Shown in pieces: positions 589-63,050 of a stretch of DNA of 64,000 nucleotides; within the stretch, counting starts at the first letter, position 1; each line of letters begins with the position of its first letter. The notes beneath the pieces are model-generated. The model was not told the DNA's origin and ran no database searches. It was given only the letters and a program-made list of their open reading frames with translations. A program made the position numbers and the translations under genes. This stretch comes from a virus. The DNA lies in IMG/VR virus record IMGVR_UViG_3300037780_000016, positions 1-64,000 of that record, one strand, 5' to 3'.

Positions 589-982
589 GGTTCTGAGAGC
601 CGTCCAGAAGAAGGCGTTCACCTTCAACGACAGCCCGGTCGGCTCAGGCCACCGCGTCTTTTACGACGTGACTGGCAACGAGGATGACGGGGCTCCGGTC
701 CTGTTCTACCTGCCCAACTTCGTGACGTTCCGGGTGCGGGACGAGATCGACGCCAAGGCGTTCAAGCAGGCTGACCCGATCCTCATGGACCCGGACGAGG
801 AGATCGCCCTGATCACCAATCGGATCGCCGAGGCCCGGAAGCATAAACGACCTTGCCCCATGGGCACGCTGAACATCATCCTGAAATGGCTGGAATACCT
901 GAAGGCCAACCCCCCAGCGAGCCGCGCACGGAAGCGTGTCAGGCCCGTCGCCCGGAAGCGGACCCGACCGCAAAAAAGTTGA
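581..982 (+). CDS. hypothetical protein with Arg-rich C-terminus
   Basis: ATG 581 after GGAGG; ends RARKRVRPVARKRTRPQKS. Confidence 0.7.
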   Translation: MSEVLRAVQKKAFTFNDSPVGSGHRVFYDVTGNEDDGAPVLFYLPNFVTFRVRDEIDAKAFKQADPILMDPDEEIALITNRIAEARKHKRPCPMGTLNIILKWLEYLKANPPASRARKRVRPVARKRTRPQKS

Positions 983-1001
983 ACCCGGGTGCATTTTCTT
1001 C

Positions 1002-1063
1002 TTGCGTTCGGCCTCGGACCTGCTATTCTAAGAATGTAAGGAAGAGGTCAACGCAAGGGAGAC
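1002..1063 (+). promoter_or_regulatory. early promoter/leader cassette
   Basis: TTGCGT-N16-TATTCT-AAGAATGTAAGG...AGGGAGAC. Confidence 0.8.
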
Positions 1064-1067
1064 GCAA

Positions 1068-1328
1068 ATGACCACCCAGATCGAAATCAACGGCAAAGTC
1101 CTGAAGGTCGGCGACAAGATCGTCGTCACCAACCGTGGCACGTACGGCAACACCTACGCCTACGGCGTGGTCACGGGCATCGGCACCGAGAACGGTGAGC
1201 CGGTCGTGGACTATACCGACGAAATCCGCAAGCGGGATAAGTGGTGCTGGGCCGAGCAGGTCATGAAGTTCCAAGACGAAGATGATCAGGCGCACGTCGT
1301 TCTGATGACCGAACCGATCACGGCATAA
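1068..1328 (+). CDS. hypothetical early protein
   Basis: First ORF behind cassette, strong RBS. Confidence 0.8.
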   Translation: MTTQIEINGKVLKVGDKIVVTNRGTYGNTYAYGVVTGIGTENGEPVVDYTDEIRKRDKWCWAEQVMKFQDEDDQAHVVLMTEPITA

Positions 1329-1339
1329 GGGAGAGCCAG

Positions 1340-1885
1340 ATGACGAAGATTTTCCGCACCGACAACCGTGGCGTGGCCAAGAACTACGCCGACCAACGCA
1401 ACACGAACGCCACACGCGGCTGCGTCTCCGGACCGAAGCTGTCCACTGAGATACTTGGGTTCTCCGGAGCCCGGTCGAGCAACGGCCAGTTCTACCACGA
1501 CAACGAGACGATCTACTCGTACGGCCCGCACTTCCCCATCGCGACCCGCCGGAACATCAACAGCTCCGAGCAGGTCATTCTGGTGCGTCCGTACGACGAC
1601 GCCCCGAGCAGCACGACGGCCCGGCACATGGGTATGGTATGCTCTGCGCTGGCTCTGGAAGGATTGAGCTATATCCGCGTGAAGAACATCTTCGCCAAGA
1701 CCACGGAAGAGCATGCCGAGAACCTTGTGTTCATGGCCGAGCAACGTGATCTGGTCGAGGGCAAGATGAACCGTGCCCGCAGCCCGCACATGCGCCGGGT
1801 GCACGCCACCGATTACCAGAAGTGGACGGACAACATGCGCCGGTATCGCATGTACTTCTTCGCGTTCACCCCGACCACGACTTAA
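1340..1885 (+). CDS. hypothetical early protein
   Basis: RBS AGGGAG, 181 aa. Confidence 0.8.
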   Translation: MTKIFRTDNRGVAKNYADQRNTNATRGCVSGPKLSTEILGFSGARSSNGQFYHDNETIYSYGPHFPIATRRNINSSEQVILVRPYDDAPSSTTARHMGMVCSALALEGLSYIRVKNIFAKTTEEHAENLVFMAEQRDLVEGKMNRARSPHMRRVHATDYQKWTDNMRRYRMYFFAFTPTTT

Positions 1886-1901
1886 CCTCCTCCCCAACTG
1901 A

Positions 1902-1943
1902 TGCACCCGGGCGAAAATAATTTGAACCCGGGTGCAATTTTTT
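1902..1943 (+). terminator. intrinsic terminator built from two palindrome copies
   Basis: TGCACCCGGG...CCCGGGTGCA stem then T-tract. Confidence 0.55.
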
Positions 1944-2716: not shown

Positions 2717-3029
2717 AGACCTCGAAGGCGTCAGCATCGCCGAACTGAGGCAGCTCATCGACGAAACAGACGTGAAGCTGGTCACGCTCATCCACGAGCG
2801 CATGTCTCTGGCAGCCGCCATGACGCAGCACAAGCATGACGCCGGGATGCCGGTCGCCTGCCCGGACCGGGAAGACGCCGTGATCCAGAACGTCGTGGAC
2901 CGGGCGAACACGCTGGACGACAAGCACGGCACCTCCTACATGGCCCGGGTCACCCTGAGCGTCATCTGGACAGCCCTCTTCAATCAGGCGAAGGTTATCC
3001 AGCACACCCTATTGGCTGAAGATAATTGA
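2700..3029 (+). CDS. chorismate mutase (AroQ/type II)
   Basis: ELRQLIDETDVKLVTLIHERMSLAAAMTQHK...PDRE...AKVIQ reproduces the spacing of E. coli CM catalytic R11, R28, K39, R51, E52, plus a Q88-like residue. Confidence 0.85.
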   Translation: MRFKPEDLEGVSIAELRQLIDETDVKLVTLIHERMSLAAAMTQHKHDAGMPVACPDREDAVIQNVVDRANTLDDKHGTSYMARVTLSVIWTALFNQAKVIQHTLLAEDN

Positions 3030-3048
3030 ACCCGGGTGCAAATAATTG

Positions 3049-3394: not shown

Positions 3395-3418
3395 GTTTGA
3401 ACCCGGGTTCAGAGGGGG

Positions 3419-3888: not shown

Positions 3889-3933
3889 GATGAACCCGGG
3901 TGCAAAAAGTTTCGCATCCGGGTCATTTTTTTG

Positions 3934-5117: not shown

Positions 5118-5603
5118 ATGCCGAACGTTCTTGATCGCAGCCGCACCAAAGGCAACCACGGCTCTCAGCGCCAATTCCACGCGGACCCGGACTTCATCGA
5201 GCTGGTGGACAGCCAGCACGAGCTGCACGCCTTCCGAGCCCGCATGACCGGTGACCCGGAAGCCCACATCGTCGCAGTCCCGAACCAGTTGCGCCTCCTG
5301 CGCAGCCTGCTCAAGCGGAACCAGTACCCGACCGTGGAGTTCTACGTCCGCAAGGGCATCGGCTCCCTGAAGTGCGCCACCCCGACCGTCCGCCAACTGG
5401 AAGCGCTGGGGTACTGGAAAGAGCACTCTCGCTATTCCGGCGGCACCTGCGTCGAATACTGGGACGAGTACAGCGGCCCCAACCCGTTCATCCGGGAAGA
5501 GAACCGCACCATCTGGAAGGATGACAAACGCACCGTCCAGAAGCACCGCGAACTGATTGAACCCGGGTTCACGAGTGACCCCATCGAAGTGGACAGGGGG
5601 TAG
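5118..5603 (+). CDS. hypothetical protein
   Basis: GGAGG RBS, operon position. Confidence 0.75.
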   Translation: MPNVLDRSRTKGNHGSQRQFHADPDFIELVDSQHELHAFRARMTGDPEAHIVAVPNQLRLLRSLLKRNQYPTVEFYVRKGIGSLKCATPTVRQLEALGYWKEHSRYSGGTCVEYWDEYSGPNPFIREENRTIWKDDKRTVQKHRELIEPGFTSDPIEVDRG

Positions 5604-6700: not shown

Positions 6701-6853
6701 GCCCTGATCCCTCCGCCCATCTCCAATGAACCGGGGTTCAAAATCGTGTAAATCGAGTATCCTCAGCCCAAATCTGAAATCGCACCTGTGATTTGACGGC
6801 CCCCGAAAGGCCACCTAGAACTGACCACCAAGACGCCTGAGAGGAGGCCCCAC

Positions 6854-7708: not shown

Positions 7709-7755
7709 GAACCCGGGTGCTGTCTCCCTCCCATGCACCCGGGTTCATTTTTTTC
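7709..7755 (+). terminator. intrinsic terminator built from two palindrome copies
   Basis: GAACCCGGGTGC-loop-GCACCCGGGTTC then ATTTTTTT. Confidence 0.65.
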
Positions 7756-8511: not shown

Positions 8512-8816
8512 CCAGTCTTCAGAAGCGCATACTGATCGCTCTGGCCGTCTTGGAGTGGGAGTGTCCGAACCGGGGCCTCACCGCCAAGGAGATCGCCAAG
8601 GTGCTGAAGCAACGCCCCCGCAAGGCGGCGAAGAGCGCAGCCGGTACGATCCAAGGGTGCCTGTCCGGGATGCGGAGAATGAAGAACCGCAACTGGGTGG
8701 AACAGATGAACCCGGGTTCAAACTGGGATGACCGCCGCTGGGTCATCACGAAGAAGGGACTGCTGACCCTCACCTTCGCGGCCAAGAACACGATCCACCG
8801 CAGGAGCTGGAAATGA
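8508..8816 (+). CDS. putative winged-helix DNA-binding protein
   Basis: LTAKEIAKVL...LSGMRRMKNRNWVE...WVITKKG wHTH pattern. Confidence 0.55.
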   Translation: MTSLQKRILIALAVLEWECPNRGLTAKEIAKVLKQRPRKAAKSAAGTIQGCLSGMRRMKNRNWVEQMNPGSNWDDRRWVITKKGLLTLTFAAKNTIHRRSWK

Positions 8817-10795: not shown

Positions 10796-10852
10796 GGGAG
10801 CCTCCGTCCAGTGACGCATCTATAGCGTTGAACCCGGGTTCACGCAACCGAC

Positions 10853-10912: not shown

Positions 10913-11857
10913 ATGGTGTACCGAAGAACTGAGGCTTGGACCGTGAACCTGAAGTGGGTCAAGAAAGGCGTCTTCGACGTCGATGACCCTGTGTTCGCGG
11001 AAGCCGCCCTGACGATCCGAAAGGACGAGGGGCAGAAACAATGGACCATCTGCACGCCGCATGGCCCGCTCTGCATTCAGTGGGGTGAAGGTCTGGCCAT
11101 TACGTCTGCTGGCGACGCGGTCTACAAGTCCGAAGAGCAATCCGAACACGGGAACCCGAACTACACCGAGTTCACGCGGACGCTGTTCAGGTTCAAGACC
11201 GCCAAGGAGGCCGCGTACTACCTGTACCGGATGCGCGACGACTGGGAGCGCTACTGCCGGTTCAACGCTGAGAAGCGCCTTGCGGTCATCGTGAAGCCCT
11301 TCAACCCGGCGGTTCAACTGCCGGAGGTCTTCCACAAACCTGTCGTGGGCATCCCCCTGACCGGTGTGCAATTGGTCAAGATCAAGGACGGCGAGTACGC
11401 GGTGATCCCGGGTGCATTCTTCCGGGGTACGATGTTCCGGGGCTACCCGCTCTTCTTCTCCGTCTACAAACTGGCGGACAGGCACTGGCACGCCCGGGCG
11501 TATGTTTACGAGGGCGGCGGATGGCGTCAGATGGACATTCGCTCCTACAACCCGAGCTGGGACCGCATGGGTATCTGGGTGCGCCAGACGCGGGTTGAGA
11601 TGATGGGATACGTGAAAGACCTCATGGTGCGCATCCTGAACACGCAGGAAGACGAGACCCACGTGGAACGGCTCTACACCGAGTACGCGGACTTCGGCGG
11701 ACAGCGGCAACACCGTTTGGTCCTCCGTCGGTTCCCGCGTGCCCTGCCCAAGGCGGCGACTGGCCGACCAACCCCGGACGAGGACGTGACCTGTCAGCCC
11801 ATGCTGGACAATGAGGAGAACATCTTCCTCAAGCTCTGGCGATGGTTCACGAACTAA
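10913..11857 (+). CDS. hypothetical protein (aromatic-rich)
   Basis: 314 aa behind cassette. Confidence 0.8.
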   Translation: MVYRRTEAWTVNLKWVKKGVFDVDDPVFAEAALTIRKDEGQKQWTICTPHGPLCIQWGEGLAITSAGDAVYKSEEQSEHGNPNYTEFTRTLFRFKTAKEAAYYLYRMRDDWERYCRFNAEKRLAVIVKPFNPAVQLPEVFHKPVVGIPLTGVQLVKIKDGEYAVIPGAFFRGTMFRGYPLFFSVYKLADRHWHARAYVYEGGGWRQMDIRSYNPSWDRMGIWVRQTRVEMMGYVKDLMVRILNTQEDETHVERLYTEYADFGGQRQHRLVLRRFPRALPKAATGRPTPDEDVTCQPMLDNEENIFLKLWRWFTN

Positions 11858-12226: not shown

Positions 12227-12593
12227 GACACGCCCCACCCCGATCTCGTTCGACGAGGCCCACGCACAGGCCCGGAAGTCTGGGTATGTGATCACCCTCA
12301 CCGAGCGGGGCTCTGGGTGGAACGCCTCATGCAGTGAACCCCGGTTCACGCCCATCTACTCGACCATCCCTTCCCCGCCTCTGGGCGTGGGCAAGACGGC
12401 TGGCGAGGCCATCGCAGACGCACACCGCAAGGCCAGCGAGTTCTACAACACCATGATCGGTAAGTGGACAGCCGCTGACTGGACGAGACTGCGCCGCCTC
12501 TGGGACTACCACAAGCGCCGGTTCCCGGAAGACGTCATCCCTGACCTCAAGGCACCGAAGCCGAAGGTCCGCAGACGCACGAGGGCAGCCTGA
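12213..12593 (+). CDS. hypothetical protein
   Basis: GTG start after AGGAGG; Arg-rich termini. Confidence 0.7.
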   Translation: MKRTRTRPTPISFDEAHAQARKSGYVITLTERGSGWNASCSEPRFTPIYSTIPSPPLGVGKTAGEAIADAHRKASEFYNTMIGKWTAADWTRLRRLWDYHKRRFPEDVIPDLKAPKPKVRRRTRAA

Positions 12594-13033: not shown

Positions 13034-13326
13034 CTGAGCAGTACGAACCTCTGGCCGACCACGTCGTGACACTGGCCATCTTGGACGCCGCCGATCAACT
13101 GCACATGGTGAGTATGCAGCTCAACGGATTGCAGAAGTCGGTCGCCGAGGAAAACGCCGAATTCTTGGCCCGGTCGAACGGGTATCTGCAAGAGGGTGAG
13201 CGCGTGGTGCAGGTGGCCTGCCTGACCATCGACCCCACCCAACTGGAAGTGAGAGACAGCCATGAGCGTAAGAGCCCGCACACGAACACGACCCGGGACG
13301 GCAAGCGCAAGCTCGACGTCAATTGA
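13030..13326 (+). CDS. hypothetical protein
   Basis: ATGA coupling; ends RKLDVN. Confidence 0.7.
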   Translation: MTEQYEPLADHVVTLAILDAADQLHMVSMQLNGLQKSVAEENAEFLARSNGYLQEGERVVQVACLTIDPTQLEVRDSHERKSPHTNTTRDGKRKLDVN

Positions 13327-13336
13327 ACCCGGGTTC

Positions 13337-13513
13337 ATGGAAGTGGTGAACCAGCTCAATGAGAAGGGATGGTTCGTGAACAACTGCTATCAGCGGCGGT
13401 TCGGCCACTGGACGATCAACATCCGCAGGCGGGATGATCCGGACGCCGTGGAGTACACGAACGCCGACAATCCGGTCGATGGCTTCAAGGCCCTACTGAA
13501 GAAAGTTGGTTGA
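13337..13513 (+). CDS. hypothetical protein
   Basis: Coding-like; start uncertain. Confidence 0.5.
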   Translation: MEVVNQLNEKGWFVNNCYQRRFGHWTINIRRRDDPDAVEYTNADNPVDGFKALLKKVG

Positions 13514-17070: not shown

Positions 17071-17112
17071 CGATTGAACCCGGGTGCATACCCACAACCA
17101 AGGAGAAGCCTC

Positions 17113-20156: not shown

Positions 20157-20249
20157 AAACGATCCGCATGTCAAGCGAAAAGGGAGGTTGAACCCGGGTG
20201 CACGCCATGCAACTGATAAGCCAGTTAGTGAGACCCGAGGAGGTGGACT

Positions 20250-20966: not shown

Positions 20967-21076
20967 AAACGCTGAACCCGGGTGCAAATAGGGTTGCCAG
21001 CCGTTTATGCTTGTGTGTATTTTCGCCTCATCAGCCGGGCACTAACGGCGCAGCAGAGCGACTTGGAGACACCAGC

Positions 21077-24234: not shown

Positions 24235-24244
24235 ACCCGGGTTC

Positions 24245-41270: not shown

Positions 41271-41288
41271 ACCCGGGTGCAATAAGCC

Positions 41289-42997: not shown

Positions 42998-43180
42998 ATG
43001 TCGAGCAGTAAGAAGAGCATGACCGTGAAGACATATGTGGTCTTGCAGCGCGACAACATTCGGGGCACTGAGAGCGTCATCGCGGTCAAACTGACCGCAG
43101 ACGCCGCCCAGAAGATTGTTGACAAGACCCCGGGAACGCGTGTGCAGAAGTTTATCGCCGATAAGCTCCCCCACGCGTGA
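42998..43180 (+). CDS. small hypothetical protein
   Basis: AAGGA RBS, 60 aa. Confidence 0.6.
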   Translation: MSSSKKSMTVKTYVVLQRDNIRGTESVIAVKLTADAAQKIVDKTPGTRVQKFIADKLPHA

Positions 43181-43223
43181 ACCCGGGTTCACCCTTAGAG
43201 CCAGCAGCAGGAGAAAAGCAGTT

Positions 43224-49642: not shown

Positions 49643-52600
49643 ATGAAGTCGGAAATCGATCTCTCTGTAGAGTTCCACAAACCCGTAGCTATCGAAGGCG
49701 CTGGCGGTAAGGGCGGCGGTGGCGGAGGCAAGGAAGCCCCCGACAGCCTGCGCTCGAACTCGTCTGGCAAGCTGCAACACATCCTGTCCGAAGGTCCGTG
49801 CGGCGGCATCGAAGGCGGTCTTGAAGGCGTCCATTACAACGAGACGCCGCTGATGGTGGGCTCCCAGAAAAACTTCAAGGGCGTCCTGATGTACGAGAAC
49901 TTTGGCCGGGGCGATCAAGCGTCCATGCCGGGGTTCGACGCAGTCACGAACGTCGTACAGGTTCAGCAGGCCGTGACGCAGGCATCCGGCGGTTACGCCG
50001 TGGCCTTCACGGACGCTCAGGTCACCGCTGTCAAAGTCACGATCTCCACGTCCAGCTTCTTCGAGGCTGACGACAAGGGCAATGTGAACGGCTCCTCCGT
50101 CACCTTCGCTATCGACCTGTCTCTGGGCGGTGGTGCGTTCAATCAGGTTGCCACGGGCACCATCACGGGTAAGACGCGCACGAAGTACGAGCGCGACATC
50201 CGTATCCCGATTGACAGCCCCGGTCAGGTCTCCGTACGCCTTCGCCGCGTCACGGCTGACAGCTCGTCCCTGAAGATCGAAAACACGATCAGCTTCGAGC
50301 GCTATACGCGTGTGATCGAGCATCGCCTGAACTACCCGTTCCTCGCGACGGCTGGCCACATCTTCGACGCCAAGCAGTTCGGCAACCGCATCCCGCAGGT
50401 CCAGTACCGCTTCAAGGGTCGGAAGGTGAAAGTCTTCTCGAACATGGACGGTGCAGCCCGGACGTTCTCCGGCAACTGGGATGGCACGTTCAAGGTGGCT
50501 GAAGAGTGGACCACGTGTCCCGTCCTGATCTTCCGCGATCTGGTCCTGAACAAGCGCTATGGTCTGGGCAAGCATGTCCCGGAAAGCCTGCTCGATGGGC
50601 CGACCCTCTATCAGCTCTCGCAGTTCTGTGCCGAGCTGGTCCCCGATGGTAGCGGTGGGCAGGAACACCGTTTCAGCACCAACGTCGTCCTGAACCGCCG
50701 CTCTGAGGCGTTCAACCTGCTGCAACAGCTCACCGCTGCCTTCCGTTCCATGCTCTTCTGGATGGACGCCAAGCTGTGGCTCCTGTCCGACCAAGATCGC
50801 GACCCGGTCAAGGTGGTGACCAACGCCAATGTGATCGGCGGCAAGTTCACCTATGCGGGCGAGAGCAACAAGCAACGCTACTCCGTCGTCAACGTCTCCT
50901 ACACCCGGGATGACGATTACTTCCGCAAGGGCGTGGAAGTGGTCGAGGACCGTGAGTTGATCAAGGAGCTGGGCTGGAAACCGACCGACCTCGGCACGCT
51001 GGGCGTCTCCTCGCGCGGTCAGGCCCGCCGTCTCGGCCTCTACCTGCTGAACGATCAGGAGCGTGAAGGCGAACTGGTCACCTATCAGGCGTCCTTCGAT
51101 CACCTGCAAGTCGCGGCTGGCGATGGCCCCTCTGGCGTTGCACCCGGTTCACGCATCCTGATCGCGGACAAAGAACGCGGCAACGCTCTGGTGCAAGGCC
51201 GGGCGACCGGCGTGTCTGGCTCTGACATCACGCTGGACCGCGACACGGGCGAGACGGGCACCGGCAACGGCACTCTCTACATGGAGACCGACGAAGGTGT
51301 CATGGAGAGCGTGGCGTGTACCTACACCGGCTCTGTGGTCACCGCGACCGAAGCGTTTACCGGCACCCCGGCGTCGGGCAACCTGTTTATCCTTGTGACC
51401 GGTGTTTCGGTCGCGGAGGAGTTCACGGTCGTCAACGTCACCGAGAAGGACAAGAACACCATTGAGGTGGTCGCCAAGAAGTTCGACAGCACGAAGTGGG
51501 CGCGTATCGACAACGATACCCCGACCGTCGGCCCGGACATCATGCAGCGCCCCTCCCCTGAGTATGTCGAGGCCCCGACGGCTTTCGACGCTCAGATCAA
51601 CTGGGTGACGCACACCGACCACCTCGAAAAGAAACTGGACATCGACTGGACCGACAGCACCGATGAGTTGCTGGACAACTACATGGTCCTGTACCAGCAC
51701 AACAACGGGAACTGGAAGGTTCTCGAAGCGTCCACGTCCACCTCCAACATCATCTTGGAGAAGGCGGAGACGGGCACCTACAATTTCCAGATTTACGCGG
51801 TGAACAGCGCTGGTCGCCAGTCTCTGCCTCTGGAAGGTTCCATCGTGGTCCCGGCGGTCCCGCCGACCGTGGACAACGCCGTGGGCACCGTCTCCAATCT
51901 GGCTCTGGACGAAGGCGGCACCGAGTTCACCGGCCATTCCGCCAAGTTCAACTGGAACGTCAATTCCCCGACCGGCGTGGCAATCCAAGACGAGATCGGT
52001 GGAACGCAGAACACGGGCGCTATCGACCCGAATTTCCGCGACTGTCTGGTCACGGTGAAGCGCACCGACGATACGGTTCTGCGCACCGAGAGCGTCGTGG
52101 GTAACCACTACGTTTATACTTCTGAGAAGAACACCGAAGACAATTTCGAGCTGGACGCCTCGGCCCCGGTCCGTAATTTCAAGGTCGAGGTCCAGTACCG
52201 CGACAAGTTCAACCGGGTATCCACGGCGGAGGTGATCACCGTCAGCAACCCGGCTCCGGCTGCTCCGACCCTGTCCACCGAGACGGTCCCGCGTGGCGTC
52301 ATGCTGACCGCGACGTCCCCGACCGATCTGGACTGGGCGGGTGCTCGCGTCTGGACGAAGGACACGGCCAGCATCAACCCGGCCTCCGACCCGTACACCG
52401 ACTATGGCCGGGTCAACGCCTTCTTCATCCCCGTGAACCCGGGTGCAACGAAATACTTCCGCGTGGCCTTCTTCGACGAGTTCGGCAAGACCACGGGCGA
52501 ACTGAACGTCTCCGCTGAAGGTTCGGCGTCTGTCCCGCTTGTCGGCAATACCGACATCGGCGCTGGCGTCATCGCCATCGACCGGCTGGTGCAGACGGCT

Positions 52601-55600: not shown

Positions 55601-58600
55601 GACGCCTCGCACTGGTACATGCCGACGACGAATGACAGCTCGGGAACGTTCACGGGCGCTGACCTCGACGCCCACGCGAACATGACGGCAGCGACGGTCG
55701 GTACGGCGACGGCGGGCTCGGATACCGGCACCGGTCTCCAAGGATACGACGGTCGCTGGATGTTTACCCGTTACGCGATCCCTGTGGACACGAGCCGTCG
55801 CTACCGCATGCGGGTGAAGGTTCTGTTCCCGACGGGTGTTGGCGGCAACTTCTATGCCGGTCTGGCGACGCTGGACGGCAGCTACAACGCCATCACGGGC
55901 GGAGCTGGTACGCACCGCTATTTCGTCGGTTCGTTCTCGCAGTCCAGCAACGCCGGGACGATTGCCACGTTCGAAGGCGAAATCACGGGCGAAGGCGATC
56001 TGGCGACCCAGTTCCGGGCTGGTACGCAGTACGTCCGCCCGATGATCATCACGTCCTACAACACGACGGCAACTCCGCAGCCCATCGTCCTGTCTATCGA
56101 CTTCGACGATGTGACTGAGGAAGTGAACCTCGGTTCACGGACGGCGATTGTCGAGGAAGCACTTTGGGACGGCTCTGAGACGCGGGCTCGTATCATGTTC
56201 CTCGCGGACGCCGGTACGGGTGCAGTGGCTGCTGGGTGGCTGACCAGTTCGGCTAACCCTAACGGCGTGGTGCAGTCCGAAGTCGGCTGGGCCGCTGACA
56301 AGTTCCTCGTCTACAACTCGCAGACCACGAACAACGACCCGGTCTTCGCTATTGACACGCAGGCCAACAAGGTCCGCATTCTAGGCGACCTGATTGCAGA
56401 CGGCTCCATTGAGGGTACGTCCATCAAGGCTGGCTCGATTGTACAGGTCGGTACGGGTGACCTGATCTCTGGCACGTCGATCTACGACCGTGCTTCCATG
56501 GCGGGCCACAACAACGGCGACTACCGCTTCTGGGCCGGTGGCCTGTCCGGCGCTGGTGCGAACTTCTCGGTTGACCGGGAAGGCGCTATCACCGCTCGCA
56601 AGATCACGATCCTGTCCGAAGACGGTACGACTGTCTGGTTCGACAGCGTCAACGGCTTCTCTGCGGTGGCCATCGCTCAGATCAATGCGAACACTGCGAC
56701 CCGGGTCTCGTCCGTTGTTGGCACCCCGGCGAACAACACGACGCACACGGACTTCTCTCTGACGGATGACCCGGCCTCGACCAATGTCCGCATGAACGCG
56801 TCTGTGAACACGACGGGTATGTCCCTCACGCAGACGTGGCTCTGGGGCAATTCGGAACCGTCTGAAATCTTCCCGTCCTCCCTGACCATCGTGATCAAGT
56901 ATCGCGACAAGGACGTGGGTGGCGCGTATACGACCGGGGTCACCAAGACCCTGACGAAGATCACGTCCGGCACTCCGACGTCCAACCAGTTCCGCGTCAC
57001 CATCACGACGCAGGCTCCGTATTACGAGCCGGACCTCGAACTGGGAGGGCAGCCGATCAACATCCCGGGCTGGAAGACGGAAACGATCACCGACCCGTCG
57101 GCGCTGGTCGCGGAGTTCACCCAGTCTCTGGCGGGTGACAGCGATGGCCGCACGTGGGAGGTTCTGGTCGAACTGACCCCGACCGGCGGTGACCTCGCCT
57201 TCGATACCAAGACGCGTACCCTGACCGTTGACACGACCGACGGCGGCAAGCCGTTCGTGATCCTCGACAACGGTGCGGTCCCGGGTGACGGTAACGCGGA
57301 CACGCTGGACGGCTTCAACAGCTCTGACTTCGGTCGTCTTGCGTCTGCTCAGACGTGGACGCAGGAGAACACGTTCAACGCCAAGGCGTACTTTGGTGAC
57401 GGCATCATTGTGTCGGGTCCGGGTTCGTACAGCAGCACCAATGACACCCGCACGGATGTCGGTATCGTCCTCCCGTCTGGTGCAGCGATCCATGGTGACA
57501 GCGGCACGGGCTACCTGCGCTACCTGTTCGAGTGGAACAACAACGACAAGATTGTCATTGGCCAGACCGGCACGTCCTTGATCACTGGCGTTTCGCTGCA
57601 AGGCGGTTCTGCTGGCGGCGTAGATATGTATCACGCCGGTATTAAGCAGTGGGAGACGATCACGAACGGTTTCCAGTTCGGTGACGTGTCCACACGCACG
57701 TCGATCACGTCCTCCGGCGGCGGGTTCATCCTGAACCACGCTGACAACTCGGACCTGCACTTCCGGACGCAGGGTAATGACCGCCTGATCTATGACCACA
57801 GCGCGAACTATTGGCAGATCGCGAACAACGGCGGTCTGCGGTTCTCCACGAACAGCTCCCGGGTGAAGGTCAGCCTGTACAGCACCACGTCCACGTACGG
57901 CATCGGTATGCAGTCGGGCATGACCTACGGGCACCTGAACGACTGGGCGATGACGTTCTGCTTCAACAACGAGAGCGACCGTGGCTTCTGGTGGGGCCAC
58001 GAGAGCCACCTGAACTCTGAAGGCGCGATGTCCCTGACGACGGACGGCCAGCTCTGGCTCCACAACACCCTGACTGTGTCTGGTGCGTGGAACTCGACGA
58101 GCAACCTCACGGTCGCCAAATTCCGCCCGTCGAACTACGCCGTCGGAAACCCTGAGCTGAACATCAAGAAAGCGGGCACCGCCAATCAGTGGAATATCGA
58201 ACTCTGGGACGGCTCTTCTCAGGGTGGCGTGATCAACTTCGGTTCGACGTCGTTGCAGCACCAAGGCAACGAGATCGCAACGCAGAGCTGGGTGAACTCC
58301 CAGATCGGGGGCAGCGCAACCCTCGCCGGAACGAACACGTGGACGGGCAGTAATACGTTTGACGCAGGTATTCTGATCGGAAACTTGGGTACGGGTATCG
58401 ATCACCGTTTCGTGAGCTACAACGATGGGGGAGCGGGCACGCTGATCATGGCGTGGTCGAACTCTGATTGGTCGAACAGTTTCCGCCTCACTGCGTCGAT
58501 TGCTCAGGTTTATGCCGGAAATCAGGCGTACAACTTTAGCAGCTCGGCCTTTGATCTGAACAACAAGAACGTCGTTGACGTGAACCGTCTTCAGGTCGGT

Positions 58601-60763
58601 AACGGTGCAGGCGATGTCCACGCCAATTATTGGACCTATGTGTATGGTCGGGAGAACCAGAACGAAGACGCCCACAAGTACGGCATTTACACTCGCCTCG
58701 ATATTGAAGGGGAAGTCTCTAACTTCACGCAGGATCGGACCCGCGCGGCTATTTACGGCTATGCACTGCTGGAAGACAATTCGACCACGGCAGACACACA
58801 CGTCTCCTCCCCCGTAGGTGTTTACGGCTACGCTCTGGGGTCCAAAGGCCATGCCGACACCATGTATGGTGTGTACGGCTTTGCCAACAACAATGGCGGG
58901 GCCGACACCGATGTGAACACGATCTACGGCGGCTATTTTGAAAGCCGCGTAGACAACGCGGGTTCGACGGCGGGCACGCTTTACGGTATCCGGGCCGTGA
59001 CGCGACTGACGAACGAGGTTGACGGCAGCGTGGTGGCCAATGCGGTCCACGGCCTGTTGAACGTGGACGGCGGCACCATGTCCACCGCCCGCATGCTGTA
59101 CGGCACGGCAGACGTCGAGGTAGGTGCTACGGTAACGACCCTGTACGGCCTGCACCTCGACATGCAGAACAGAATGGACGGTACGGTCACGAACCGTCGG
59201 GGTATCTGGCTCGAAGGAAACACGACGTACCTGACCAACTCGATTGGCGGTCGGACGTACTTCGGCAACGCTGAAGGCTACGTCAACCCGGACAGCCCCT
59301 ACGTCGCGCACTTCGAGAATGAAGCCAACGTCCTCGTGACCCTGATCCAAGGTCCGTCCGACGGATCTGGTGTTTATACCCGGTATAGCCGAGGCACGGC
59401 GTATTCGTGGGATGTCGGCTTCGACAGCACGTCGGACTTCTTGTTCCGCCCGAACGGCACATCGACTGCGATGAAGTTCGACTACGACATGCTGCCGATT
59501 TCGTTCAACACCGTCGGTCTGGTGATGGACGGGAAGCAGGCGCTCAGTGGCACCGATAGCTGGCTGCGCCTTAACAGCGGTGGCCAGTTCACGTCCGGCA
59601 TCTACTGTGCCAGCTCTCAGGTCCGCACGGACAACGAGTTCCGGGTCCGGGGCCTCGGTGCCACGTATTTCCGTGGACACGAGCTGACGATCCAATCTGA
59701 CAGCGGGGTCTTGAACCGCATCCGGGTCCGTGGCCAAGGCACCGGTTACACGACCGCCAACGTCCTTCTCGAAGATGATAGCGGCTCGACCGTTCGCGGT
59801 ATGGGCATGTTCATGTACAACCGGGCCTCGGGCAAGGAGTGGTACTTCGGACAGCCGTATAACGGCGACGAGACGTACTCCGGCGTCTACTACTCGTATC
59901 AGTCCAACGGCTCTGAGGGTGCGGAGACTTCCGACGTTTCGAACTATATCGTCGAGTTCCACAACAATGGTCAGGTGCGGTTCCAGAACGGCACGTCCAG
60001 CCTTCCGTCCATCGCGTTCCATGACAATCCGGACTGCGGCTTCCGCCTGTCTTCCAATGAAATCATCGTCGGCTCGGACGGCAACAACGTCATGGGCTGG
60101 AAGCCGGGTCGGATTGAGGTCTACAACAACTCGATCATCGACTTCAATTCGCACACCGGCTCCCGCACGATGATGGAGCTTGAAGGCCGGGCGATCATGA
60201 ACCAGATGTCGGATCGGGGTGCACTGCTGCTTCGCTCTGCTGATGACAGCTTGAACCTGTACGCAGGTGACAGCCACGCAAACATGACGGACAACGTCGG
60301 TCTGACCGGTGAAGACATTCACATGGGCGCTGAAGGTCAGTTCGAGTTGTACACGAACCTTCAGAACGGCTGGGCGAACCGGGAGAGCCTGACGTTCTCG
60401 GCAGCCGGTGTTCTGACGTCGTCCGGTACGGTGGTTCAGCAATCGGACCAGCGCCTGAAGCATTCTATCCGGGACTGGGACTTCGATGTCTCCGCGATCA
60501 TCGACGGTATCCGCCCCCGCCGGTATGGCTGGAACAACGCGTTCAAGTCTCAGGATGATTTCGGTCTGATCGCTCAGGAACTTCAAGAAGTGTTCCCCAG
60601 CGCGGTCCAAGAAGACGAAGACGGCACCCTGTCCGTGGATTACAGCCGCCTCTCTGTGGTCGCCATCGCGGCGATCAAGGAGGAGCGAACCCGGGTTCAA
60701 AAGCTGGAAGACAAGGTCGCTGAGCTGGCAGAGGTGGTCGCGAAGCTGGTGGAGGCCGCGTAA
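49643..60763 (+). CDS. giant tail-tip protein: lambda J-like hub + FN3 + coiled-coil/binding modules + fibre + S74-type intramolecular chaperone
   Basis: LSEGPCGG, NKRYGLG, QARRLG; RITTVE heptads; GNADTLDG; SDQRLKHSI...GLIAQELQEVFP...VDYSRL. Confidence 0.88.
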   Translation: MKSEIDLSVEFHKPVAIEGAGGKGGGGGGKEAPDSLRSNSSGKLQHILSEGPCGGIEGGLEGVHYNETPLMVGSQKNFKGVLMYENFGRGDQASMPGFDAVTNVVQVQQAVTQASGGYAVAFTDAQVTAVKVTISTSSFFEADDKGNVNGSSVTFAIDLSLGGGAFNQVATGTITGKTRTKYERDIRIPIDSPGQVSVRLRRVTADSSSLKIENTISFERYTRVIEHRLNYPFLATAGHIFDAKQFGNRIPQVQYRFKGRKVKVFSNMDGAARTFSGNWDGTFKVAEEWTTCPVLIFRDLVLNKRYGLGKHVPESLLDGPTLYQLSQFCAELVPDGSGGQEHRFSTNVVLNRRSEAFNLLQQLTAAFRSMLFWMDAKLWLLSDQDRDPVKVVTNANVIGGKFTYAGESNKQRYSVVNVSYTRDDDYFRKGVEVVEDRELIKELGWKPTDLGTLGVSSRGQARRLGLYLLNDQEREGELVTYQASFDHLQVAAGDGPSGVAPGSRILIADKERGNALVQGRATGVSGSDITLDRDTGETGTGNGTLYMETDEGVMESVACTYTGSVVTATEAFTGTPASGNLFILVTGVSVAEEFTVVNVTEKDKNTIEVVAKKFDSTKWARIDNDTPTVGPDIMQRPSPEYVEAPTAFDAQINWVTHTDHLEKKLDIDWTDSTDELLDNYMVLYQHNNGNWKVLEASTSTSNIILEKAETGTYNFQIYAVNSAGRQSLPLEGSIVVPAVPPTVDNAVGTVSNLALDEGGTEFTGHSAKFNWNVNSPTGVAIQDEIGGTQNTGAIDPNFRDCLVTVKRTDDTVLRTESVVGNHYVYTSEKNTEDNFELDASAPVRNFKVEVQYRDKFNRVSTAEVITVSNPAPAAPTLSTETVPRGVMLTATSPTDLDWAGARVWTKDTASINPASDPYTDYGRVNAFFIPVNPGATKYFRVAFFDEFGKTTGELNVSAEGSASVPLVGNTDIGAGVIAIDRLVQTAQDRINAIPNIESDISTLQSDLGTAQSDLDAAERLLDATNWGAIVANMEPIHPDLQWSGGTELSAVLTSGGSRATESTVNGDLQLVTNATGSQYLYLDNLVANGLPAEVAGDLSYADARYLVLEFTPTVDAGNDFTTHLRAAFRTNSADSANWFDPVTGTSNDQLVVGRRYTVVWDLFGKTATSGQVWGSAAPDRIWFEWQDGNAIGNTAIIHKVALMSSGDVMTAYSRARITDNETLTADHASRINTLEASDGTNTSAISSLQSVQSDHATRINNIETTQGTYGSRITTVENTTASQATAITNLETTSAWVAGGTIPPGHGHVGMTGDLTFEANMLTTGANDGEIKVTGTYYEHPTAGRRSTSAAFDINTPYEGNTSGFQTRAYLICSNVACPTRFSGWDGVSSNGAEHFFLAVYYESSGSWTAFGNTTSHPYTPLDSDVVVAVLTKPNTASGGIDTLTSLVTQTGNLDGRVGSAESSITILNTTTGNQATAISNLETAVGTPSGGDLFSRIATVETTSVGNASRLSLVEVGQYEQYRTGLSMNAVDQRIVMDDYAIVDIVAMEDNVTVYQNGSVLTTLTNRGDVYSLSVGNQTKGDILTSDKPTAMYDRGGYPLPHLGFKGRQFIAKQTRAANIELNIYSEEDAFALIYVRNNTNSEAHPNPARVPTPTADLSAGLSGGAVTTITLDAATYGFVDGDNVSVYIQASTDVVVMCRDGDSADDHSIVPPVSRRVLNARANEFNTFDSVATWTTNSSSATANGDIYYFYDSDVPGSTFEAGDGSGTANAHGLPYEALGDTYIIPANTALEVTVVAVEPCIVDVTNVGNTIQQSLDFTAASFTNPVAISIEEQTTGTYPWSGQAVTLKSRDGTPFGVRIDDNDADEMWLLGYRESLQQNFVGGRVGVVEKVTKDNASRLTTVETTAGNNSSAISTLQTTTGNNATAISAIQTSIGTDDAQGNLFSRIATVESTSAANASRITTTEIQINGALPLLPQGGNLAQDASHWYMPTTNDSSGTFTGADLDAHANMTAATVGTATAGSDTGTGLQGYDGRWMFTRYAIPVDTSRRYRMRVKVLFPTGVGGNFYAGLATLDGSYNAITGGAGTHRYFVGSFSQSSNAGTIATFEGEITGEGDLATQFRAGTQYVRPMIITSYNTTATPQPIVLSIDFDDVTEEVNLGSRTAIVEEALWDGSETRARIMFLADAGTGAVAAGWLTSSANPNGVVQSEVGWAADKFLVYNSQTTNNDPVFAIDTQANKVRILGDLIADGSIEGTSIKAGSIVQVGTGDLISGTSIYDRASMAGHNNGDYRFWAGGLSGAGANFSVDREGAITARKITILSEDGTTVWFDSVNGFSAVAIAQINANTATRVSSVVGTPANNTTHTDFSLTDDPASTNVRMNASVNTTGMSLTQTWLWGNSEPSEIFPSSLTIVIKYRDKDVGGAYTTGVTKTLTKITSGTPTSNQFRVTITTQAPYYEPDLELGGQPINIPGWKTETITDPSALVAEFTQSLAGDSDGRTWEVLVELTPTGGDLAFDTKTRTLTVDTTDGGKPFVILDNGAVPGDGNADTLDGFNSSDFGRLASAQTWTQENTFNAKAYFGDGIIVSGPGSYSSTNDTRTDVGIVLPSGAAIHGDSGTGYLRYLFEWNNNDKIVIGQTGTSLITGVSLQGGSAGGVDMYHAGIKQWETITNGFQFGDVSTRTSITSSGGGFILNHADNSDLHFRTQGNDRLIYDHSANYWQIANNGGLRFSTNSSRVKVSLYSTTSTYGIGMQSGMTYGHLNDWAMTFCFNNESDRGFWWGHESHLNSEGAMSLTTDGQLWLHNTLTVSGAWNSTSNLTVAKFRPSNYAVGNPELNIKKAGTANQWNIELWDGSSQGGVINFGSTSLQHQGNEIATQSWVNSQIGGSATLAGTNTWTGSNTFDAGILIGNLGTGIDHRFVSYNDGGAGTLIMAWSNSDWSNSFRLTASIAQVYAGNQAYNFSSSAFDLNNKNVVDVNRLQVGNGAGDVHANYWTYVYGRENQNEDAHKYGIYTRLDIEGEVSNFTQDRTRAAIYGYALLEDNSTTADTHVSSPVGVYGYALGSKGHADTMYGVYGFANNNGGADTDVNTIYGGYFESRVDNAGSTAGTLYGIRAVTRLTNEVDGSVVANAVHGLLNVDGGTMSTARMLYGTADVEVGATVTTLYGLHLDMQNRMDGTVTNRRGIWLEGNTTYLTNSIGGRTYFGNAEGYVNPDSPYVAHFENEANVLVTLIQGPSDGSGVYTRYSRGTAYSWDVGFDSTSDFLFRPNGTSTAMKFDYDMLPISFNTVGLVMDGKQALSGTDSWLRLNSGGQFTSGIYCASSQVRTDNEFRVRGLGATYFRGHELTIQSDSGVLNRIRVRGQGTGYTTANVLLEDDSGSTVRGMGMFMYNRASGKEWYFGQPYNGDETYSGVYYSYQSNGSEGAETSDVSNYIVEFHNNGQVRFQNGTSSLPSIAFHDNPDCGFRLSSNEIIVGSDGNNVMGWKPGRIEVYNNSIIDFNSHTGSRTMMELEGRAIMNQMSDRGALLLRSADDSLNLYAGDSHANMTDNVGLTGEDIHMGAEGQFELYTNLQNGWANRESLTFSAAGVLTSSGTVVQQSDQRLKHSIRDWDFDVSAIIDGIRPRRYGWNNAFKSQDDFGLIAQELQEVFPSAVQEDEDGTLSVDYSRLSVVAIAAIKEERTRVQKLEDKVAELAEVVAKLVEAA

Positions 60764-61938
60764 TGTCCGCCCCTACCGGCGTCACAGTCGGCACGATCTC
60801 CGGAAGCACAGTTCCCCTCAGTTGGACGAATGGCTCTGTCACCTCGTCCTCTGACGGGGCCTGTACGGCTGCATTCCGACAGGAGAACCGCATCGAGCGG
60901 AGCCTCGACGGCTCAACGAACTGGATCAGCAACGGTGTTGTGGGTCCAACGGTCACCAGCACCAACGCGAATGTTCCCGACGGGAACTGGTATTTCCGCG
61001 TCGTGGCGGTCGAGCACTGGTACGTCGATCTGGGCGGCGGTTGTAACCTGATCGTCTCGGATTGGGGAAGTTCGGTTGTCGGGCCTCACCTGATCGGGGA
61101 CGACACCTATCCCGACGCGTTCGATTTCACGGATGTCGCAAACCAAGAGAAAAGCGCTGTTGTAACGTCGAACACGATCACTGTGACCGGCATCACCGCA
61201 GCCACCCCGATCTCGATCTCCGGAGGCATTTCCCCTGAATACCGGATCAACGGAGGGTCATGGACCAGCGCTGCCGGTAACGTGAACAACAACGACACTG
61301 TTCAGATCAGGGCGACGAGTGCCAGTACGTTTTCTACGACGACTACCACGACGCTGGATATCGGCACGCGCACAGACGACTGGGCTATCACCACTCAGAA
61401 CCTCGGAGGCTCAGTAACCGCCCCAGCGTCCGGGACGATCAGTTACGACGACATCCGAGCATGTTGGGGGCCGAGCACGGCGACCGATGTGGACATGAAC
61501 GATTGGCGGAAGAATGGCCCGTACTGGCAGGACTTGCCGGAGAACGCGTCAGTCCCTACCGGCAACCCCTTCGACCTGTCCGACTTCTATGGCATCAAGG
61601 GCATCTGGCAGTTGTCCACCCCTGCCCCGGTGGTTATGTCGGGCGCCTCCGGAACGGGGCAAACTGCTAGTGCCAGCTACCTACCGACGACCGCAGGTGT
61701 GGTGCCTCTGGAATTCAAGATCAGCGTCGTGTCTGGCTCGACGGCGGGATGCACGTTCAACTTGACCAACCCGTTGGACACATGGCGGGCGTTCACGACG
61801 TGGCAAATCAGCTACACTGACACCGAAGATAGCAGTATCGGGGCGACACTCCGACTGCACATTCGCCCTGTCGGTTCGACGACTGAGGTCACGCAAGACA
61901 TCACCCTGAGCCTCGTTATCGGTCTCGGCGGTCCGTAA
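60763..61938 (+). CDS. tail fibre-associated/adhesin protein
   Basis: FN3-like N-terminus, Thr-rich Ig-like unit, SGTISYDDI...DLSDFYG attachment-like motif. Confidence 0.65.
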   Translation: MSAPTGVTVGTISGSTVPLSWTNGSVTSSSDGACTAAFRQENRIERSLDGSTNWISNGVVGPTVTSTNANVPDGNWYFRVVAVEHWYVDLGGGCNLIVSDWGSSVVGPHLIGDDTYPDAFDFTDVANQEKSAVVTSNTITVTGITAATPISISGGISPEYRINGGSWTSAAGNVNNNDTVQIRATSASTFSTTTTTTLDIGTRTDDWAITTQNLGGSVTAPASGTISYDDIRACWGPSTATDVDMNDWRKNGPYWQDLPENASVPTGNPFDLSDFYGIKGIWQLSTPAPVVMSGASGTGQTASASYLPTTAGVVPLEFKISVVSGSTAGCTFNLTNPLDTWRAFTTWQISYTDTEDSSIGATLRLHIRPVGSTTEVTQDITLSLVIGLGGP

Positions 61939-62035
61939 AGGGCTTGAACCCGGGTGCAATCTCGCCTAGTGTCGGTCCCCATCTGGAAGCCGCAAGGCAA
62001 CCCGGGCTTAACCCTTGGCGAACAATGGCGAACAG

Positions 62036-62293
62036 ATGGACCCCACGAGCTACTTCCTTGACAACCCCAACCTGCTGGTCGGGATGGTGATTGTCATTGT
62101 GACGCTGACAGGTTCGGTCGGCTTCCTGTTCCGTTCTCTCCTGAAGTCCAAGGACGACCGGCTGTCTGACGAGCAGGAGAGAAGTCGTGAAGTCATTGAA
62201 GCCCTCAACCGGAACACTATCGCCCTCGACAACCTACGGGTTGCTATCTCCTCCTTGCGTGCTGCCTCGAACGGAGGTAACAATGTGGGATAA
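62036..62293 (+). CDS. single-TM protein (holin-like)
   Basis: One TM helix plus short coiled coil; start 62015 or 62036. Confidence 0.5.
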   Translation: MDPTSYFLDNPNLLVGMVIVIVTLTGSVGFLFRSLLKSKDDRLSDEQERSREVIEALNRNTIALDNLRVAISSLRAASNGGNNVG

Positions 62294-62468
62294 ATTCTGG
62301 GCATCCATCAAAGACCTGTTCGCGTATAAGCACCCCGCAGCCTGCAAAGACTGCGAGGTTTATCGCACAGAACAACGGCAGGCAGTCCAAGCGAACCGCG
62401 AAGCAAGCCGCCTCCTTGAAGAGGCCATTGCACAAATGGAACCTGTTGGAGGCCCTGTGGCGAAATGA
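62283..62468 (+). CDS. hypothetical protein
   Basis: GGAGGT RBS. Confidence 0.6.
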   Translation: MWDKFWASIKDLFAYKHPAACKDCEVYRTEQRQAVQANREASRLLEEAIAQMEPVGGPVAK

Positions 62469-63016
62469 ACTGGAAGACTGTAGCCCTTCGAACGGCAGCC
62501 GCATTCGGCCTGCTGGTCCTGTTTGCCCATATCGCGACGCAAATCGTCGAGGGTATGTCGGGCACGCTGGCGAACCTCTTTGGTGTCAATCTCATTCAGG
62601 CAACCGCTGGCGCGTATGCTGTCGAGGCTTTGGCGACGTGGTCTGCCGCGATCCTGTTCGCGTTGAAGTTGGTCACGTCCAGTTACCATCTGCCGAACTG
62701 GCGCTCTCGTCTGGATTTTCTTCGTCACTCCGCCACGCAATTCGGCGTCCTCTGGGTCGCGATCCTCTGGCTGGTGTTCTCGAACCGTATGTTCTGGCTG
62801 TTCGCGATCTATGACGACCCAAGCCTGTACGCCCAGTTTACTGACTACGAAGCCGCCGCCCGGTCGAACGTCCACGGTCTTATCGGTCTGTGGCTCAGCT
62901 TCCTGACGCAGTACATGGAGACCCATAATTTTCGACGAGCCGCGTGCGTGACCTTTGGCCTTACGGTTATGGTCGTGATCGCATTCTGGGCAGCCGCCCT
63001 CACCATCCCAGTATGA
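62465..63016 (+). CDS. multi-pass membrane protein
   Basis: About 5 hydrophobic segments, ATGA coupling. Confidence 0.7.
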   Translation: MNWKTVALRTAAAFGLLVLFAHIATQIVEGMSGTLANLFGVNLIQATAGAYAVEALATWSAAILFALKLVTSSYHLPNWRSRLDFLRHSATQFGVLWVAILWLVFSNRMFWLFAIYDDPSLYAQFTDYEAAARSNVHGLIGLWLSFLTQYMETHNFRRAACVTFGLTVMVVIAFWAAALTIPV

Positions 63017-63020
63017 CTTG

Positions 63021-63050
63021 ACCCCGGGTTCACCGCCCGGGGTTTTCTCT
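63021..63050 (+). terminator. intrinsic terminator overlapping a palindrome variant
   Basis: ACCCCGGG-TTCACCG-CCCGGGGT then TTTCTCT. Confidence 0.5.

Follow-up and report, generated by a model that had tools for sequence, protein, structure and literature searches.

The first 64,000 nucleotides (the window) of the 91,687-bp IMG/VR phage record IMGVR_UViG_3300037780_000016 carry a chorismate mutase gene, thyA, a PhoH-like gene, terminase, portal, prohead protease, capsid and tail genes, all interspersed with copies of a 14-bp palindrome, TGMACCCGGGTKCA. The record has a 127-bp terminal repeat, which suggests a circular assembly, and essentially all of its genes lie on the + strand. A nucleotide search of a phage collection with 20 kb of the window returned no matches. 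Its portal protein puts the phage near Rhizobium phage vB_RleS_L338C (hereafter L338C) and, at a greater distance, near the Rhodobacter RcF phages, Agrobacterium JP1, Aeromonas HJ05 and Pseudomonas Samunavirus. Neither a tyrosine integrase nor an immunity repressor was detected in the phage genome. Here we describe the distribution of the palindrome in this phage and its relatives, and weigh the proteins that might read it.

A palindrome dispersed along the genome

An initial, sequence-only reading of the window had reported about 27 consensus copies of the palindrome, and we recovered 27 exact matches to TGMACCCGGGTKCA at the coordinates it gave, against none in 100 dinucleotide-preserving shuffles; the symmetric form, allowing up to two mismatches, occurs 35 times in the window where 0.22 are expected. 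Over the whole record we count 36 exact copies and 8 with one mismatch, or 44 sites, spaced at about one per 2 kb. Permuting synonymous codons gene by gene left a mean of 0.16 copies (maximum 2), and permuting codon order left none, such that the enrichment holds over a codon-aware background (36 versus 0.16 expected).

Of these 44 sites (at most one mismatch), 21 are intragenic, 15 are intergenic and 8 contribute the TGA of the motif as the stop codon of a gene; seven of the genes that stop in this way lie in the window, as the same reading had listed, and the eighth ends outside it at 84207. Conserved genes are among those that contain copies, again as reported, including thyA, an AlkB-like oxygenase gene and the tail L gene, all three identified by Pfam as well, and a J-like tail gene. 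Because the intragenic copies occupy both of the frames that avoid TGA (12 versus 8), translating as NPG or EPG, the motif is a feature of the DNA and not of the encoded proteins, and on this point too the initial reading was right. The longest stretch free of sites (~8.3 kb, counting copies with up to one mismatch) lies within the 3706-aa J-like gene (49643-60763).

Perfect symmetry is found in 16 of the 36 exact copies. The asymmetric variant, TGAACCCGGGTGCA, falls 17 times on the coding strand (for example, window 980, 1923 and 3027) and 3 times on the reverse strand (for example, 7734 and 15890), and the double-TGCA form has no copies in this phage. We rejected composition skew as the cause of the 17:3 bias, as the A/T ratio of ~1.2 predicts only ~1.2:1. 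The bias is weaker in the relatives checked, at 11 versus 10 in SM1 and 14 versus 10 in G001, a 93-kb relative from IMG/VR. The CCCGGG core occurs 157 times in the genome versus 55-62 times in codon-aware shuffles, with just 42 occurrences in motif context, and about 20 isolated half-sites, GAACCCGG, are also present (with CCCGGG, for example, at window 1902-1915 and 7708-7721); these may be decayed or functional half-sites.

One architecture, many words

A palindrome of the form TG[C/A]A-N6-T[G/T]CA, in each case in the lineage's own word, is present in the set of seven complete genomes, in RcZahn and in most of 44 metagenomic loci, spanning phages with Rhizobium, Rhodobacter, Agrobacterium, Aeromonas, Pseudomonas and Stenotrophomonas hosts, at similar site density across relatives. 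The word is TGCAAC-SS-GTTGCA in G001 (34 sites), TGCAAC-N1-2-GTTGCA in L338C (68 sites), TGCAATCGATTGCA in RcTiptonus (48 sites), TGCAAACGTTTGCA in JP1 (35 sites), TGCAACNNGTTGCA in HJ05 (24 sites), TGCAARCGYTTGCA in SM1 (32 sites) and TGCAATYRATTGCA in Stenotrophomonas phage DLP_5 (DLP5). RcZahn has a degenerate version, with 12 copies of TGCA-N6-TGCA in 50 kb versus 1.0 expected, and Vibrio SIO-2 gives a weak site signal. The exact symmetric 14-mer of the present phage occurs in IMG/VR as single copies in 42 unrelated contigs, and no other contig there has more than one copy.

What is kept across these genomes is the dyad, despite change in the inner bases: ACCCGGGT in this phage, AATCGATT in RcTiptonus, AAACGTTT in JP1, AACNNGTT in G001, L338C and HJ05, and AARCGYTT in SM1. 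Outer TGAA blocks are used by this phage and by other lineages too, and we found no conservation beyond ~16 bp around the sites. In L338C (loci L048, L053 and L063), 13-bp TGCAAC-N-GTTGCA and 14-bp TGCAAC-NN-GTTGCA forms coexist, with a free centre, so that whatever reads these sites has to accommodate half-sites whose spacing differs by 1 bp.

The sites are also more evenly placed than chance would have them. Site spacing has a coefficient of variation of 0.43-0.72 across the seven complete genomes, versus ~0.97 for simulated random placement (p from <0.0002 to 0.014), and about half of the sites are intragenic although the non-coding fraction is 8-22% per genome. Even spacing, intragenic sites and a rich set of recombination genes (RecA, two resolvases and a Cas4-like exonuclease in these phages) might together suggest targets for DNA processing, whether single-strand nicks as in T5, recombination hotspots akin to Chi, or entry points at which a resolvase or endonuclease serves recombination-dependent replication; the modest 17:3 strand bias, at one position of an otherwise symmetric consensus, leans the same way. 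Known nick and Chi sequences, however, are short and asymmetric, whereas here dyad symmetry persists while the inner bases evolve, which points to a reader that is itself symmetric and recognises double-stranded DNA. On a palindrome, moreover, a nickase would tend to cut both strands, and a subset of the sites is fixed in position relative to −35 boxes (see below). Processing targets of these kinds are, in our estimation, distinctly improbable.

Intergenic sites lie 0-6 nucleotides past the upstream stop codon in every genome, and the gap from site to next start codon is either ~60-75 nucleotides, which is room for a promoter and leader, or ~10-20 nucleotides, which is room for a ribosome-binding site. 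Such regular placement at the ends of cistrons could also be read as an RNA-level element, a 3′ hairpin serving as terminator, stabiliser or processing signal. Yet the best folding energy of the hairpin, −3.3 kcal/mol, is weak, and the most frequent variant in this phage (17 copies) is unfolded at 0.0 kcal/mol; no consistent T-run follows the site, half of the copies are intragenic, and conservation extends beyond pairing to the sequence itself. We rejected a hairpin role on folding energy, and consider an RNA-level element in general highly improbable.

Relation to promoters

Some of the sites in this phage, in L338C and in G001 lie close to promoters, 7-12 nucleotides ahead of a strong −35 box, TTGAC. 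In these three genomes TTGAC occurs 5-13 nucleotides past the site at 18-25 times expectation, and on the downstream side only. Considered from the promoters, a site ends within 13 nucleotides of the −35 box at 5 of 9 conserved sigma70-like promoters in this phage, 6 of 19 in G001 and 9 of 22 in L338C; among the early promoters of this phage, just 3-5 of 9 have an adjacent site. Because just ~30-55% of conserved sigma70-like promoters carry an adjacent site, the rest carrying none, and because other sites are remote, promoters can do without a site and sites occur away from promoters; a promoter geometry fixed for all sites was looked for and not found. The sequence-only reading had placed eight copies just upstream of −35 boxes; we find TTGAC 3-10 nucleotides downstream of four of these (3027, 3398, 10829 and 35508), while the assignments at 980, 1923, 3891 and 7734 are unconvincing. 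The arrangement as a whole resembles a KorB-OB type operator network, in that one palindrome recurs at many dispersed places (44 sites), some directly upstream of a −35 box and others remote or intragenic. The site at the prohead protease gene (window 35508) has a counterpart in 5 of the 7 genomes.

A candidate DNA-binding protein

That reading had proposed a dimeric phage protein as the reader of the palindromes, and we concur to the extent that the sites have the look of targets for a sequence-specific DNA-binding protein that is dimeric and encoded by the phage. Of the proteins common to the seven genomes by BLASTP, a single one among those examined has a DNA-binding fold; this core protein is 441 aa long and is encoded beyond the window. 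Its orthologues include SM1 gp050, RcTiptonus gp82, JP1_074, L338C gp074 and DLP5 gp066, profile search adds RcZahn, 62 GenBank phage records and 44 IMG/VR loci, and Vibrio SIO-2-like phages encode a member of the family as well.

AlphaFold returned a mean confidence score (pLDDT) of 77 for the full protein and 91 for its central domain alone. In the models the N-terminal domain is SH3/KOW-like, the linkers are disordered and the central domain is helical, with a helix-turn-helix (HTH); a short HeH-like motif is also present. In a structure search with the central domain, ParB-superfamily DNA-binding domains made up 8 of the 12 top hits (Z was 3.0 at rank 50), led by ParB-parS (6s6h; Z 7.8, root mean square deviation (rmsd) 4.8 over 107 residues) and Spo0J (1vz0; Z 7.6, rmsd 2.5 over 89), with KorB (8qa8; Z 6.3), KorB-OB (1r71; Z 5.6) and P1 ParB, SopB and VirB (1zx4, 3mkw and 3vwb) also among the matches; the full-length model gave the same top hits. 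Foldseek found a sole geometrically credible match for the central domain, the Noc DNA-binding domain, and for the full-length model its matches were limited to the N-terminal SH3-like domain. The ESM Atlas pointed, weakly, to clusters containing Plasmid_parti_N and DUF3102 (score 0.89). The ParB_N CTPase domain is not found in the protein, residues 1-83 of which match SH3, KOW and Tudor-like folds. With moderate confidence, we assign the modelled central domain a ParB/KorB-type fold; because sequence-level support is absent, we claim the fold only, and not membership of the family.

A second line of evidence comes from the position of the sites. Among 21 conserved genes, that of the 441-aa protein is the only one to have a site in a matching position in every one of the seven genomes, 82-130 nucleotides 5′ of the start codon and at or just past the end of a RuvC-like gene; in five genomes a −35-like hexamer (TTGACA, TTGACT or TTGCCA) follows 8-11 nucleotides past the site. 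At further distinct loci, a site lies within 260 nucleotides upstream of the homologue in 27 of 34, against a baseline of 18.5% of all genes with a site within 150 nucleotides upstream. As the word found there is always the lineage's own, this upstream site has been kept through changes of specificity. Such a pattern would be expected of an autoregulated DNA-binding protein, and is compatible also with the gene being a conserved target of another binder.

From the enrichment of the palindrome, its even spacing, an architecture kept across the clade while its sequence drifts, the similarity in fold and the site conserved 5′ of the candidate's gene, we infer binding, a binder and a role: the palindromes would form a genome-wide docking array for a phage-encoded dimeric protein that binds double-stranded DNA, most likely the 441-aa core protein. 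We put the probability of this reading at roughly 55%.

Several observations weigh against it. For a helical domain, Z scores of 7.6-7.8 count as moderate, Pfam HTH_ParB (PF17762) matches nothing genome-wide even at E≤10, and a profile search of PDB sequences with the 441-aa family returned nothing; nor can a sliding clamp in the manner of KorB be assumed, because the candidate has no ParB N-terminal CTPase domain. The upstream site is absent in 7 of the 34 loci, and where present it could mark the 441-aa gene as regulated by the true binder, or protein and motif could both be mere clade markers. JP1 and locus L109 share one motif with divergent recognition regions, and RcTiptonus, JP1 and SM1 retain TGCAA yet have no YRKAMYL helix. 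Finally, a symmetric dimer leaves the 17:3 strand bias of the asymmetric variant unexplained.

Recognition sequences and motif do change together in one instance. The TGAAATCGATTTCA lineage (loci L069-L077) has GWAKA, in the helix after the HTH, where TGCAATCGATTGCA relatives (L073, L085 and L090) have GWTKA or GWTKC; the TGCA-to-TGAA switch is thus accompanied by GWTKA to GWAKA, in a single evolutionary event, and this position may be a specificity residue.

Covariation with the recognition helix of the 441-aa protein is weak, which speaks for the alternative that the palindromes are read by some other dimeric binder, whether a small phage regulator that evolves rapidly or a protein of the host, with the 441-aa gene merely among its targets. 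The architecture suits many HTH dimers, several variants match the LacI/PurR-type operator pattern, TGNAANCGNTTNCA, and our literature search met the JP1 motif core in PurR-box papers only. A co-evolving phage protein nevertheless fits better than a host factor, because the architecture is constant whether the host is an alpha- or a gammaproteobacterium, and it is the inner bases that drift by lineage. BLASTP, moreover, finds no other DNA-binding protein conserved across the seven genomes, and the sole site position conserved in all seven is the one upstream of the 441-aa gene. We regard another binder as unlikely.

The ParB-methyltransferase-CmoA module

The sequence-only reading had linked the sites to ParB-family proteins, and in particular to a ParB-methyltransferase-CmoA module encoded in the window. 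The ParB connection survives in the predicted ParB/KorB-type fold of the 441-aa protein; the module fares less well, since BLASTP finds it only in this phage, HJ05 and SM1. As an account of the lattice, the palindromes might be loading or modification marks for the ParB_N protein, the double-ParB_N-methyltransferase fusion and the CmoA-like methyltransferase. ParB_N-type proteins are present or annotated in every relative, the module adjoins packaging genes, and the CCCGGG core is a plausible enzyme target. However, orthologues of the 530-aa fusion and of the 241-aa class I methyltransferase occur in HJ05 and SM1 only, yet RcTiptonus, JP1 and L338C carry the lattice, and the module is for this reason not the common reader; its proteins show no recognisable sequence-specific DNA-binding domain, and only 42 of the 157 CCCGGG hexamers lie in motif context. 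We consider such marks improbable. In RcTiptonus and JP1 the neighbour of the ParB-like gene is instead glycosyltransferase-like, and in L338C it is PAPS-reductase-like.

The individual genes put forward as binders in that reading likewise find no support. For those at 8508, 16432, 19383 and 27009 we found no orthologues across the clade, a weak hit to 16432 in L338C apart; that at 24245 is a probable small terminase, and those at 21077 and 21914 have ParB N-terminal-type domains only. By Pfam, the ParB_N signal in the genome is confined to 21095-21379, in gene 21077-21886, the 269-aa product of which may be an accessory factor; it is not the proposed binder. The OmpR/PhoB-type winged-helix protein of 27009-27293 was rejected as binder, having no orthologues in the relatives; it is a stand-alone 94-aa protein (Trans_reg_C, E 4e-9) encoded directly after the large terminase gene.

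Sites and neighbouring genes

The sites of the window and the genes around them are collected in Table 1. In the early region, 2700-3029 encodes a type II chorismate mutase (Pfam CM_2, E 3e-13), and the product of 23509-24234, adjoining the terminase genes, is a class I S-adenosylmethionine-dependent methyltransferase. Beyond the window, the gene for an AAA ATPase is conserved clade-wide together with the small genes that follow (genome 66239-69674), and a 413-aa protein with an asparagine-synthase/QueC-like PP-loop domain (genome 89321-90562), with an orthologue in HJ05 only, could by its domain be a nucleotide or DNA modification enzyme.

Table 1. Palindrome sites in the window, with the candidate binder and the ParB_N-type proteins (window coordinates unless marked; nt, nucleotides; ORF, open reading frame).
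Feature	Position	Strand	Context
Exact site	980..993	.	TGA is stop of ORF 581-982
Exact site	1923..1936	.	Intergenic
Exact site	3027..3040	.	TGA is stop of chorismate mutase gene 2700-3029; −35 box TTGACC starts +8 nt
Exact site	3398..3411	.	3 nt past stop codon; −35 box TTGACT starts 7 nt downstream
Exact site	3891..3904	.	Intergenic
Exact site	5558..5571	.	Within ORF 5118-5603
Near-copy, 1 mismatch	6727..6740	.	Intergenic
Exact site, rarer TGC...TTCA orientation	7734..7747	.	Intergenic
Exact site	8707..8720	.	Within ORF 8508-8816
Exact site	10829..10842	.	Intergenic; −35 box TTGACC starts 10 nt downstream
Near-copy, 1 mismatch to degenerate consensus	11403..11416	.	Within ORF 10943-11857
Near-copy, 1 mismatch	12335..12348	.	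Within ORF 12213-12593
Exact site	13324..13337	.	TGA is stop of ORF 13030-13326
Exact site	15890..15903	.	Within AlkB-like 2OG-Fe(II) oxygenase gene 15448-16026
Exact site	17075..17088	.	4 nt past stop of ORF 16432-17070
Exact site	18602..18615	.	Within ORF 18088-18684; promoter-like element 43 nt downstream
Exact site	20189..20202	.	Intergenic, 5′ of PhoH-like gene
Exact site	20973..20986	.	6 nt past PhoH-like stop; ParB_N-type gene 21077-21886 90 nt downstream
269-aa protein, ParB N-terminal-type domain, no recognisable DNA-binding domain	21077..21886	+	PF02195 E 4.3e-4, below family cut-off
530-aa protein, two ParB_N-like segments and Rossmann methyltransferase-like motif	21914..23506	+	Assigned by eye; nothing by Pfam
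Exact site	24232..24245	.	TGA is stop of class I methyltransferase gene 23509-24234
Exact site	27110..27123	.	Within 94-aa OmpR-type winged-helix ORF 27009-27293
Exact site	28835..28848	.	Within thyA 28465-29268
Exact site	30868..30881	.	Within ORF 30498-30935
Exact site	32666..32679	.	Near 3′ end of ORF 30994-32718; portal gene 91 nt downstream
Near-copy, 1 mismatch	34688..34701	.	Within ORF 34563-35510
Exact site	35508..35521	.	TGA is stop of ORF 34563-35510; TTGACC +3 nt; prohead protease gene +62 nt
Exact site	38571..38584	.	37 nt past major capsid gene stop
Exact site	41268..41281	.	TGA is stop of ORF 40563-41270
Exact site	43178..43191	.	TGA is stop of ORF 42998-43180
Exact site	47781..47794	.	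Within tail L gene 47420-48175
Near-copy, 1 mismatch	48342..48355	.	Within ORF 48277-48930
Exact site	52434..52447	.	Within 3706-aa J-like tail gene 49643-60763
Near-copy, 2 mismatches	56124..56137	.	Within J-like gene
Near-copy, 1 mismatch	60686..60699	.	3′ end of J-like gene
Exact site	61945..61958	.	6 nt past stop of ORF 60763-61938
Near-copy, 1 mismatch	63019..63032	.	2 nt past stop of ORF 62465-63016
441-aa core protein, candidate binder	genome 84306-85631		Outside window; no family assignment

Comparison with known systems

Our literature searches found no phage paper containing the motif strings and no published description of such a palindrome lattice, and the paper on the RcF cluster is silent on repeats; the closest known systems are the OB sites of KorB and the repeats of Cluster O mycobacteriophages. 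KorB, a member of the ParB family from plasmid RK2, is loaded onto DNA at palindromic OB sites scattered over the plasmid, and the promoters it represses include both adjacent and distant ones (PMC11790492). The likeness to the present sites lies in a short palindrome dispersed over a mobile genome, with some copies directly 5′ of a −35 box and others remote, and in a ParB-type HTH reader domain, KorB structures 8qa8 and 1r71 being among the top fold hits of the candidate; the site upstream of the candidate's own gene would imply autoregulation. RK2, on the other hand, carries about a dozen OB sites, whereas the phages have 36-68 sites in 80-110 kb, evenly spaced and often intragenic. The candidate also differs from KorB in having no ParB_N CTPase domain, which makes the KorB sliding clamp, and no match to Pfam HTH_ParB; no KorA-like partner was identified here, and no ParA match to PF13614.

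The nearest published phage precedent is provided by Cluster O mycobacteriophages such as Corndog, in whose genomes a 17-bp dyad repeat, TGTTCGG-N3-CCGAACA, occurs more than 30 times (PMC4351075). About one-third of these repeats are in coding sequence and most are off promoters, and their authors predicted binding by a dimeric protein while leaving the function open; the phages encode a protein with a ParB-like domain and an AAA ATPase, and are without integrase and parAB (PMC4351075). As in those phages, we find more than 30 dyad copies through a siphophage genome, partly intragenic and mostly away from promoters. The sequence and the host phylum are different, and a binder is proposed only here, from its fold and the conserved upstream site. 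The stoperators of Cluster A phages (gp71 of L5) are likewise dozens of short repressor sites along the phage genome, some of them off promoters (PMC4351075), and the many scattered sites described here, including those at non-promoter positions, resemble them in this respect. Stoperators, however, are asymmetric and oriented with transcription, whereas the sites here are palindromic (16 of the 36 exact copies perfectly so), and this phage has no detected integrase or immunity repressor.

The Noc-binding site is a 14-bp palindrome with a CCCGGG core that is scattered along the Bacillus subtilis genome. Noc is a ParB paralogue, and its DNA-binding domain (PDB 6y93) is the credible Foldseek match of the candidate, yet Noc has a ParB_N domain, a membrane-targeting helix and a role in cell division, and the CCCGGG core is peculiar to this phage and not found in its relatives.

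Discussion

How might a docking array centred on the 441-aa protein work? A dimer would place one subunit on each half-site, reading outer TG(C/A)A blocks that are one helical turn apart. The protein would probably control its own promoter through the site just 5′ of its −35 box, and probably also act at some of the strong sigma70-type promoters, namely those with a site 7-12 nucleotides 5′ of the −35 box. The other sites, at gene ends or written into genes, would keep the spacing even, so that no part of the genome is out of reach of the bound protein. Such an array could serve to silence or time transcription globally, to organise the genome physically, or both, and the clade-universal ParB_N proteins could cooperate with the candidate.

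A bolder proposal, which we hold to be doubtful, is that this clade of 80-110 kb proteobacterial siphophages has a ParA-less, possibly 'split ParB' system, in which a CTPase-less ParB-type protein, perhaps with separate ParB_N proteins, coats, silences or organises the chromosome on an even lattice of 30-70 palindromes, and in which the lattice could also serve as a centromere in plasmid prophages such as DLP5. PF13614, the ParA-type ATPase family searched for, has no match at E≤1, other ParA families not having been searched. DLP5 has been reported to persist as a phagemid (PMC5834331; PMC7326821), and because it carries both the 441-aa protein and the sites, a centromere-like role is possible in some members. 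If true, a ParA-less lattice would manage a whole phage genome in a way for which phages offer no described example.

Should the docking-array reading be correct, one protein and one short DNA word would manage a whole 90-kb genome in a widespread group of cultured and uncultured phages, several with laboratory strains as hosts, that includes Pseudomonas Samunavirus, Stenotrophomonas Delepquintavirus and phages of Rhizobium, Rhodobacter and Agrobacterium, and a conserved protein now labelled hypothetical would gain a function. The dyad repeats of Cluster O mycobacteriophages would acquire a testable explanation, and the idea of dispersed ParB-type sites, as known from KorB and Noc, would reach tailed phages in which no ParA-type or integrase gene has been detected. 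The lineage-specific words would then constitute a natural set of orthogonal protein-DNA pairs.

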